Positions 18,415 through 64,000 of a DNA stretch of 64,000 bases are shown piece by piece. A program made the translations under genes and the position numbers. A model generated the notes under the pieces. The model was not told the DNA's origin. It did not search any database and saw only the letters and a list, made by a program, of their open reading frames with translations. The DNA comes from Pseudobdellovibrionaceae bacterium (GTDB lineage: Bacteria > Bdellovibrionota > Bdellovibrionia > Bdellovibrionales > Bdellovibrionaceae), in contig JBDHWW010000007.1 of assembly GCA_039810425.1 (NCBI GenBank), positions 1-64,000 on the forward strand, given 5' to 3'. The stretch's first letter is position 1. Every line of letters begins with the position of its first letter.

Positions 18415-18430
18415 TTATCCACGTGGATAT
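18415..18430. promoter_or_regulatory. Paired DnaA-box-like sites overlapping the dnaA start
   Basis: TTATCCACG and inverted CGTGGATAT around the GTG start codon. Confidence 0.55.
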
Positions 18431-61964: not shown

Positions 61965-63416
61965 ATGAACGGCGAAACTTTTCCAAGCTTCAAAAGCGCA
62001 AAATTCACAGCCATTATCAGCGACCTGCATCTTTGTGAGGCCGAGCCGGTTAATCTAAAGTTTCCGCTCTGGAAGAAGTTTAAAACCAAGCAGTTTTTTT
62101 TCGACGATATCTTCACAGGTTTTTTGCAAGAAATTGAAAATAAAGCCAAGGGTGAGACCGTTGAGCTGGTTTTGAACGGAGACATTTTTGACTTTGATAG
62201 CGTGCTCCGTTTGCCTGAGGAGCCGATTTTTAGGGTGAGCCGGCTTGAAAAAAGGCGCGGTTTGTATCCGCGGGCGGAACGCTCGAGTTTTAAAATCAAA
62301 GTGATTCTTGAGGATCATGCTGTTTTTATGCGGGCGTTGCGTGAATTCATCCGTCGTGGCAATCGTGTTGTTTTTGTAATTGGCAATCACGATCTTGAGC
62401 TTCACTTTCCGGAAGTGCAGCAAGAAGTTCGTCATGCATTAGATTTGACGGAAGAACAGCAATATCAAGTTCGTTTTGTGGAGTGGTTTTATATTTCCAA
62501 CGAAGACACTTTGATCGAGCACGGGAACCAGTACGACCCTTATTGTATGTGCGAGGATCCGATCAACCCCTATGTGCAAGGTTACAACTTTGTTTCGCTG
62601 AGATTGCCGTTTGGAAACCTGGCTTGCCGGTATATCATGAATGGCTTAGGCTTCTTTAATCCACACGTCGATTCAAACTACATCATGGGTATTACTGATT
62701 ATGTGATGGTCTTTTTGCGATACATGGCCCGCGCCCAACCGTTCATGGTTCTAACTTGGTTCTTCGGTTCGATCATGACATTGATTCAGTCTTTTAAAGA
62801 CCGCTTGGCGGCACCCATCCGAAATCCCCTCAAGATTGAAGATCGTATTGAGGCGATTGCCCGCAACTCAAATGCGGAACCAAGAATGGTGCGCGAAATG
62901 AAAGAGCTTTTTGTGGCTCCGGCGGCCAGCAATCCGTTCTTACTGGCCCGCGAATTGTGGCTGGATCGCGCCTTCTTGATTTGTGTCGCGTTCTTTTTGA
63001 TCTTTGAATTGATGATCTTTGTTCGTCAGGTTTATGATTTGTCTTTCTTCTGGGCATTCATTCCGATGTTCATCTTGCTGCCGTTCTTTCTTTTCTATAG
63101 CAAGTCCATTACGTCGCTGGTTTCCAGTTATAAGGAGCCAAACGAAAGAATCCTGGCGATGACGAGTACGATTGCCAAAGTAAAACGTGTCATCTATGGG
63201 CACACCCACCACGTTCGTCATGAAATGATTGGCGCGGTAGAACATCTAAATTCAGGCTGCTGGTCTCCGGCATTTTTAGATATTGAGTGTACAAAACCGT
63301 TGGATCAAAAAACTTACGTGTGGCTTTCTCCTCTGGAAACGGGAGAAAGACAGGCAGAACTTTACAAATTTATTGATGGACAGTCGCAACTCTTTATGTC
63401 GGCGGGCAGCCGCTAG
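61965..63416 (+). CDS. Calcineurin-like metallophosphoesterase with membrane insert
   Basis: SDLH, GDIFD, GNHD, EHG and GHTH, with hydrophobic segments before GHTH. Confidence 0.88.
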   Translation: MNGETFPSFKSAKFTAIISDLHLCEAEPVNLKFPLWKKFKTKQFFFDDIFTGFLQEIENKAKGETVELVLNGDIFDFDSVLRLPEEPIFRVSRLEKRRGLYPRAERSSFKIKVILEDHAVFMRALREFIRRGNRVVFVIGNHDLELHFPEVQQEVRHALDLTEEQQYQVRFVEWFYISNEDTLIEHGNQYDPYCMCEDPINPYVQGYNFVSLRLPFGNLACRYIMNGLGFFNPHVDSNYIMGITDYVMVFLRYMARAQPFMVLTWFFGSIMTLIQSFKDRLAAPIRNPLKIEDRIEAIARNSNAEPRMVREMKELFVAPAASNPFLLARELWLDRAFLICVAFFLIFELMIFVRQVYDLSFFWAFIPMFILLPFFLFYSKSITSLVSSYKEPNERILAMTSTIAKVKRVIYGHTHHVRHEMIGAVEHLNSGCWSPAFLDIECTKPLDQKTYVWLSPLETGERQAELYKFIDGQSQLFMSAGSR

Positions 63417-63524
63417 TAAAAAAAAGCCCCCGTTATGCGGCGCGCGACAAATAAAATTTGTCAATGACCAAGCGCTATGCAAACCTCTTAATGTTTTTAA
63501 AAGCGAAAACGGAGGCTAAGGACT

Positions 63525-63719
63525 ATGTCAGAAGTACTAGTTGTAACTAGCAAAGTAAAAAAATTGATCAAGGAAAAAGGCGGAATGAATACTTCTGCTG
63601 AAACGATCGACGTTTTGAGCAAAGCGATTGAGCAACTCTGCCTTAAAGGCATTGATAGCGCGAAAGCTGACGGTCGCAAGACTGTTATGGCTCGCGATAT
63701 CGTTATTGATCATTTGTAG
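63525..63719 (+). CDS. Bacterial histone-fold protein (Bd0055/HBb-like)
   Basis: 64 aa; basic alpha1 (SKVKKLIKE), long alpha2 and histone L2/alpha3 signature AKADGRKTVMARD; GGAGG RBS. Confidence 0.93.
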   Translation: MSEVLVVTSKVKKLIKEKGGMNTSAETIDVLSKAIEQLCLKGIDSAKADGRKTVMARDIVIDHL

Positions 63720-63757
63720 AAGTTAGCCTTACATCACCAGGCTTTTTATCCCGAACT

Positions 63758-63794
63758 TAAAAAAGAAGCTCGCAAGGGCCTCTTTTTTATTTTT
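63758..63794 (+). terminator. Intrinsic terminator after the histone gene
   Basis: AAAAAAGAAGCTC-GCAA-GGGCCTCTTTTTT. Confidence 0.7.
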
Positions 63795-63816
63795 GCACTA
63801 TGATTTAGATAAAGCT

Positions 63817-64000
63817 ATGGAAAAAACATTCCCTCCGTCGAAAATTCCACTCACGCACGCCCAGTTGAAACGAAGAAATATCAAAGACGTTTATTCCGCT
63901 TTCGAATGTGTCGATAGTGACCGCGCTCGCTTGAGGGAGTTTCTTCCGTGGGTGGATAAGTCGAAATCCGTCGAAGACCAGGTTTGGTATGTCGGCGAAT
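63817..64000 (+). CDS. RimL/RimJ-like GNAT N-acetyltransferase (partial)
   Basis: ATG 63817, MEKTFPP...VDSDRARLREFLPWVD; open to the window end. Confidence 0.65.
   Translation, partial: MEKTFPPSKIPLTHAQLKRRNIKDVYSAFECVDSDRARLREFLPWVDKSKSVEDQVWYVGE

Follow-up and report, generated by a model that had tools for sequence, protein, structure and literature searches.

Histones occur in 1.86% of bacterial genomes (PMC10627809), and the closest described relative of the gene studied here is Bd0055, or HBb, of Bdellovibrio bacteriovorus. As reported in PMC10627809, Bd0055 is the 12th most abundant protein of strain HD100 and tops its nucleoid fraction, 133 and 150 attempts to delete its gene all failed, and the crystal contains a filament that coats straight DNA, with wrapping obtained only once the S45, A48 and I61 sites are changed. 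PMC11317129 describes HBb as a dimer by SEC-MALS that binds DNA non-specifically in the micromolar range and bends it by TPM and circularisation; in the same account MNase gives no ladder, DAP-seq yields no motif, deletion fails and expression follows the growth phase. The original prediction described an abundant, essential histone with a debated binding mode (filament coating or bending), and this agrees with both papers, with the gene being probably essential. In PMC11390915, HBb is placed among the 'bacterial dimer' alpha3 histones, a class defined by sequence clustering, and R48 and N52 of the face-to-face interface (FtF numbering) are described as absent from bacterial dimers. With regard to expression, the bd0055 transcript is reported to peak at 260 min, in the late growth phase (10.1101/2025.09.24.678257), and the start-site study PMC3627812 left the growth-phase promoters unmapped.

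The gene examined here belongs to a Pseudobdellovibrionaceae bacterium and lies in a stretch of 64,000 nucleotides, the whole of which is called the window. Its identification as a positional orthologue of Bd0055/HBb is supported, and the main reading, to which we assign a probability of about 0.93, is that this orthologue is likely an abundant homodimer that bends DNA non-specifically, that its gene has a predicted sigma70-type promoter of its own and a predicted single-gene transcript, and that a GC box upstream is likely bound by a regulator. The features of the locus, in window coordinates, are the following.

61965–63416, forward strand: calcineurin-like metallophosphoesterase gene (PF00149), the upstream synteny marker
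63436–63444, no strand assigned: conserved GC box TGCGGCGCG, consensus YGCRNYGCR, a candidate regulator site 14 nt upstream of the -35
63446–63462, no strand assigned: palindrome GACAAAT-AAA-ATTTGTC, probably incidental (an A/T tract plus the -35)
63458–63463, forward strand: predicted sigma70 -35, TTGTCA, overlapping the right arm of the palindrome
63476–63486, forward strand: predicted extended -10, TATG-C-AAACCT, spacer 17 nt, with TG at -15/-14, A at -11, T at -7 and no T at -12
63511–63515, forward strand: Shine-Dalgarno GGAGG, 9 nt before the ATG, with GGAG(G)-type sites at orthologues
63525–63719, forward strand: histone gene, 64 aa, bacterial-dimer type (alpha3-truncated), Bd0055/HBb orthologue by PDB match and model
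63758–63796, forward strand: predicted intrinsic terminator with a GCAA loop, an A tract before and a U tract after it (fold z -2.8)

The open frame around the histone comprises 72 codons only, and the 64-aa ORF at 63525–63719 (+) carries RKTVMARD as residues 51–58. A PDB search returned Bd0055/HBb as the best entries, with 60 of 64 residues identical (8FVX, 8CMP; E 1.8e-33); the matches to 8FVX/8FW7 and 8CMP/9EZZ/9F0E span all 64 residues (E about 2e-33), and four substitutions (A2S, Q20G, V43I and E44D) separate the protein from HBb. The near-identity to Bd0055 stated in the original prediction is confirmed by this search. Scores from family libraries are marginal, as the Pfam family PF00808 reaches 21.4 bits, which is just at the cut-off, and falls below it in another scan, and the NCBIfam archaea_histone model NF043032 stays under its cut-off, so that the histone assignment rests on the PDB match. 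This agrees with the earlier remark that such genes are usually annotated as hypothetical. The gene is an ordinary one that adds a further orthologue to a bacterial histone already well described.

Sampling of the class gave a histone match (E <= 0.001, the weakest near 1e-4) in 300 of 301 genomes, hence the claim that the gene is rare is correct for bacteria overall (the proportion given in PMC10627809) and wrong for this class. In this genome the histone gene is the single match, and the titled records closest to it come from Bdellovibrio and Pseudobdellovibrionaceae. For counts per genus, the 129 loci were reduced to one for each of 87 genera, of which 40 belong to the family and 47 do not; neighbour counts are lower bounds, with loci spanning 1.5–2.5 kb per side. 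At least 34 of the 40 family genera and at least 24 of the 47 others carry the metallophosphoesterase gene upstream in the same orientation, while a gene that we take from its sequence to be NAD-dependent DNA ligase converges downstream in at least 33 and at least 37 of them, respectively. A run of genes, presumably dnaA-dnaN-recF-gyrB-gyrA, starts at window position 18423, about 45 kb from the histone. On this evidence from sequence and gene order, the histone gene is a vertically inherited positional orthologue.

Adjoining the histone terminator, a RimL/RimJ-like GNAT acetyltransferase gene (PF13302; NCBIfam RimL model below cut-off) occupies 63793–64000 on the forward strand and continues to contig position 64377. 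A GNAT gene stands behind the histone in one of the 40 family genera and, by eye, in about three of six loci of this genus, and this patchy occurrence suggests a chance insertion. The histone N-terminus, M-S-E, is a possible substrate for N-terminal acetylation. Elsewhere, one relative genome holds two singlet histone copies 2.4 kb apart with equal scores (contig C5, 141979–142167 and 144366–144554), and four viral contigs encode distant histone relatives with 35–62% identity over part of the protein. Several small contigs that appear among the motif lists (C88, C94, C113, C124 and C129) are GC-rich and unlike the remaining genome, and are probably contamination (stated contamination 2.74%).

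Turning to expression, the strong RBS that had been claimed corresponds to the GGAGG at 63511–63515, and the claimed terminator of the gene's own to a hairpin with flanking A and U tracts, which folds at 63758–63789 with -13.1 kcal/mol (z -2.8), a stability that 3 of 200 shuffles also reach. A hairpin and a U tract follow the stop codon in most orthologues, as judged by eye. A simple promoter/terminator scan reported neither this hairpin, probably because of an A.C mismatch in its stem, nor a promoter, because the scan is too strict for this -10. The -35 is TTGTCA in 31/31 loci of this genus (g1) and genus g4, and the orthologues have in common TTGTCA, 17–18 nt and then TATG-N-(A/C)A-N-N-CT. 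A permissive promoter pattern in which position -12 is free fits 35 of the 40 family genera (71/81 loci, some calls being weak); over these 35 genera the -12 base is A in 17, C in 17, G in one and T in none, and in ten held-out loci it is A in eight and C in two. When intergenic location is scored with rough gene calls of our own, the TATG.TA...T form with T at -12 is intergenic in 35 of 95 matches in this genome, compared with about 10% non-coding sequence, and the form with another base at -12 is intergenic in 27 of 207, which equals background. The enrichment of the T form supports the -10 register and makes the histone -10 a consistent departure from consensus. The conserved upstream sequence is best described as a predicted sigma70-like promoter with a -10 that lacks the -12 T, together with the GC box treated below, and the monocistronic transcript would run from about 63490–63493 to the hairpin.

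In related genomes the HU promoters combine a near-perfect TTGAC -35 with a -10 that by eye seems to be T(T/C)TNAT without the -11 A, and a non-consensus -10 may be frequent among strong promoters of the family. Because of these HU departures and of a CarD-family gene that is present in the genome, a weak histone -10 need not mean that a specific activator is involved. Other sigma factors were considered and rejected: for sigma32 the spacing is 4–5 nt too short, and the FliA consensus TTAAG-N16-CCGATA (PMC3627812) is mismatched by the histone promoter. Four of 23 public RNA runs gave only short contigs, mostly from other strains.

Upstream of this promoter lies the GC box, the pattern of which (YGCRNYGCR) was defined after viewing the loci. 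With one locus per genus it is found in 28 of 87 genera, compared with 3.4±1.6 in shuffles (17/40 vs 1.8±1.3 in the family and 11/47 vs 2.1±1.5 in other families), and the exact pattern is missing from 59 of the 87. In a held-out set of 45 loci, which remained from 80 metagenome loci after removing seven that were too short and 28 that resembled earlier ones, the box is present in 17 as compared with 2.1±1.4 in shuffles (maximum 8 in 200). When the HU genes of 30 genomes from 30 genera were used as a control, the box was found at none of them and at 14 of 30 histone genes, or at 10 and 23 of 30, respectively, if one mismatch is allowed. Replacing the inner spacer of 3 by 2, 4 or 5 abolishes the enrichment, and a spacer of 1 is enriched largely through overlap with the same GCGC runs. 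Genome-wide, 39 of 1724 upstream windows contain the box, compared with 38 in shuffles (GC-rich windows dropped), which means that there is no large regulon.

The 31 loci of this genus and g4 all place the box 14–16 nt from the -35, whereas the interval between the box and the upstream stop codon ranges from 0 to 36 nt (29 measured). Over genera, the distances to the -35 are 12–17, 21–30, 35–36 and 47 nt in the phasing set, made up of those genera (24 of 31) where the promoter call is good and the box deviates by at most one mismatch; they follow a period of 10.5–11 bp (Rayleigh p about 0.005), a post hoc value from kin that are not independent. The held-out distances of 15, 19, 24, 33, 35 and 35 nt agree with this phasing at p about 0.18, which is not significant. 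The full layout of promoter and box occurs in 11/11 titled Bdellovibrio records picked from the 80 loci. A search for the box, TTGWCA and the extended -10 in 141 family genomes gave 48 matches in 46 genomes, comprising 37 histone promoters, eight copies of one recurring sequence, which we take to be 16S rRNA, and three sporadic hits; no second recurring promoter of the same layout was found among these genomes, and by eye the layout is absent upstream of the HU, IHF-like and Fis-like genes of this genome.

Could the box instead be a structural or repeat-derived sequence that is kept by descent, for example a REP-like remnant behind stop codons? A repeat of this genome with 23 copies ends in a TGC-N3-GC-type sequence and usually follows a stop codon, a related repeat precedes the histone gene at one orthologous locus, the box itself often lies within 20 nt of the stop of the upstream gene, and it is free of genome-wide enrichment. 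However, a remnant of this kind would be expected neither to keep 14–16 nt to the -35 in every g1 and g4 locus while its distance to the stop varies, nor to recur in other families where the flanks are unalignable, and the selectivity for the inner spacer (2 or 4 in place of 3 being unenriched) and the empty HU control also argue against it. A repeat origin is consequently regarded as rather unlikely, albeit with an appreciable share of the probability. The repeat is about 35 nt long, with a short hairpin, a T run and an end that resembles the histone GC box, and its copies, among them those at C7:75484 and C38:16515/16611 beyond the window, are mostly found right behind stops, with one facing pair; the literature searched offered nothing relevant on Bdellovibrio REP elements.

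The preferred reading is that the box is likely a putative regulator site. Some protein-binding role is somewhat favoured, and a specific activator on it, which would compensate for the non-consensus -10, is a more tentative proposal that falls a little short of even odds. As a candidate for the binding protein, a RegA/PrrA-type regulator was tried on the basis of motifs; a short protein motif matched nothing in the genome, and the HTH_8 domain has 14 matches in it. Within the abstracts and paper passages searched, no description of the bd0055 promoter or of the box was found, and as far as this search reaches, the box is an undescribed, modest lead on histone regulation.

The upstream element that the original prediction had put forward is the palindrome, which is present exactly at 63446–63462 but is not what is conserved there. 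The pattern GACAAA..TTTGTC occurs in 5 of 70 orthologous loci and 2 of 87 genera, and in none of the 45 held-out metagenome loci or the 11 titled Bdellovibrio records. Its right arm overlaps TTGTCA, which is the conserved part, and it is read as an A/T tract that happens to mirror the -35; the hairpin has z = -1.07, and the palindrome is probably incidental. That it would be an operator over the -35, bound by the histone itself in autoregulation or by a repressor, is improbable: the perfect 7-bp arms overlap the -35 and the pattern is retained by four of the six loci from this genus and by one further genus, but the left arm is missing from two of these six and from every g4 locus, the held-out loci lack the pattern, 102 of 1565 intergenic windows of 100–110 nt in the genome (6.5%) hold a comparable perfect inverted repeat (arms of at least 7 bp, spacer 3–6 nt), and binding of HBb in DAP-seq is reported to be without sequence preference (PMC11317129).

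If the activator reading is carried further, histone supply in Bdellovibrio-like predators might be under dedicated control, with a putative activator that binds the box and turns histone expression on while the predator grows in its prey. This is a speculative proposal, at slightly less than an even chance, and it takes the box as lying about 15, 25 or 36 nt (one helical turn apart) upstream of a sigma70 promoter in which the -12 T has been lost throughout the family. If true, bacteria would have a counterpart of replication-coupled histone expression, and the box would be a handle on an essential gene that resisted deletion. The protein itself adds little, with five PDB entries already available and an orthologue that is near-universal in the class, and as the checked contact residues all equal those of HBb, this orthologue cannot help settle the question of filament versus bending. 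The upstream architecture is a useful by-product, since bd0055 is tied to the growth phase, its deletion fails, and its growth-phase promoters were left unmapped in PMC3627812. Furthermore, the box is also found in cultured B. bacteriovorus, which opens a route to the regulator that is testable in a laboratory species and offers a way of lowering histone levels without gene deletion.

As for the protein, an AlphaFold model was built from an alignment of 55 sequences (pLDDT 92.8) and used in place of a single-sequence model that was poor (pLDDT 73, rmsd 5.3 A). The model has helices at residues 8–19 and 25–48 and an alpha3 of one turn, with three helical residues (56–58), and it superimposes on 8FVX with an rmsd of 0.9 A and a TM of 0.91, which, together with the reading frame, upholds the 64-aa single histone fold with RKTVxxxD of the original prediction. 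Its top fold matches are 8FVX, 9EZZ, 9F0E and 8CMP (TM 0.85–0.91), followed by the tetrameric HTkC (9F2C) and HLp (9QT0) at a TM of about 0.8. The structural comparison that had been proposed with HMfB gave a TM of 0.58 and 27% identity to 1A7W, vs a TM of 0.91 to 8FVX. All 22 positions taken from two structure papers, which cover the DNA contacts, the RD clamp, the dimer core and the S45/A48/I61 sites, are identical to HBb, and the four substitutions fall outside the listed published DNA and dimer contacts. The RKTxxxxD motif, the RD clamp (D49, R51, D58) and the alpha1 residues S9-K10, K12 and K16 are all present, and S9, K10, K12, N22, T23, S24, R51, K52, T53, R57 and D58 are invariant in 87/87 genera. 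Position 21, on the other hand, is divided among the 87 genera between Met (40) and Cys (41), the Cys21 form occurring mostly in other families alongside a near-invariant Cys39. The protein fits the bacterial-dimer class, with a single fold, a shortened alpha2, an alpha3 of 3–4 residues and no extra domain.

By analogy with HBb, this 64-residue histone-fold protein likely acts as an abundant homodimer that binds and bends DNA without sequence preference, its dimerisation and non-specific bending being inferred from 94% identity. Minor-groove backbone contacts would be made through L1-L2 (T23, S24, A25, K52, T53 and R57) and alpha1 (T8, S9, K10 and K12); the dimer would not proceed to a tetramer, since the HMf histidine site is A48, and bending would take place without nucleosome-like wrapping, although the protein may coat DNA as a filament at high density. 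HMf-like wrapped (hyper)nucleosomes or face-to-face tetramers are very improbable, given that the points in favour (a histone fold that has RKTV and the RD clamp, and the tetrameric HTkC and HLp as next-best structures) are outweighed by A48 (H49 in HMfB), S45 and I61 being the same as in Bd0055, by the one-turn alpha3 and by the position of the four substitutions outside the listed contacts.

The second histone type of these bacteria, the ZZ histone, was searched for with the protein of a relative, assigned by its Cys-rich N-terminus and histone fold following the description in PMC11390915. The studied protein aligns only to residues 99–158 of a ZZ-type histone and has no ZZ N-terminal zinc-finger domain, and the histone half of the query matches this genome only at the studied gene. 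Residues 5–70 of the query match a closed ORF on contig C76 (4639–4866, +), which encodes a stand-alone Cys/His-rich protein of 75 aa that is 70% identical to the zinc-finger half and lacks the histone fold. A finger-only frame of 76–92 codons occurs in four of seven genomes of this genus, in the other three the ZZ query matches the singlet only, and most other family genera retain a fused ZZ-type histone. With these queries, the singlet appears as the sole histone of this genome.

To conclude, the protein shares with Bd0055/HBb (8FVX, 8FW7, 8CMP, 9EZZ, 9F0E) the length of 64 aa, the fold, the DNA-contact and dimer residues and the lack of the tetramer histidine, and titled B. bacteriovorus records have an identical promoter layout and box. 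The locus differs from that of Bd0055 in that the histone is separated from the ligase-like gene by a GNAT gene and a small membrane-protein gene (1/40 family genera), and the genome in that a full ZZ histone was not found in it. The ZZ histone (Bd3044 type), according to PMC11390915 weakly expressed in HD100 and equipped with a zinc-finger domain at its N-terminus, has a C-terminal histone domain that is 47–48% identical to this protein. HTkC and HLp share with it the histone fold, the RKT loop, the RD clamp and a short alpha2 and alpha3 (34–39% identity, TM about 0.8), and HMfA/HMfB share the fold, the RKT loop and the RD clamp (27% identity and TM 0.58 for HMfB). Unlike HBb, however, HTkC, HLp and HMf form tetramers or hypernucleosomes that wrap DNA.
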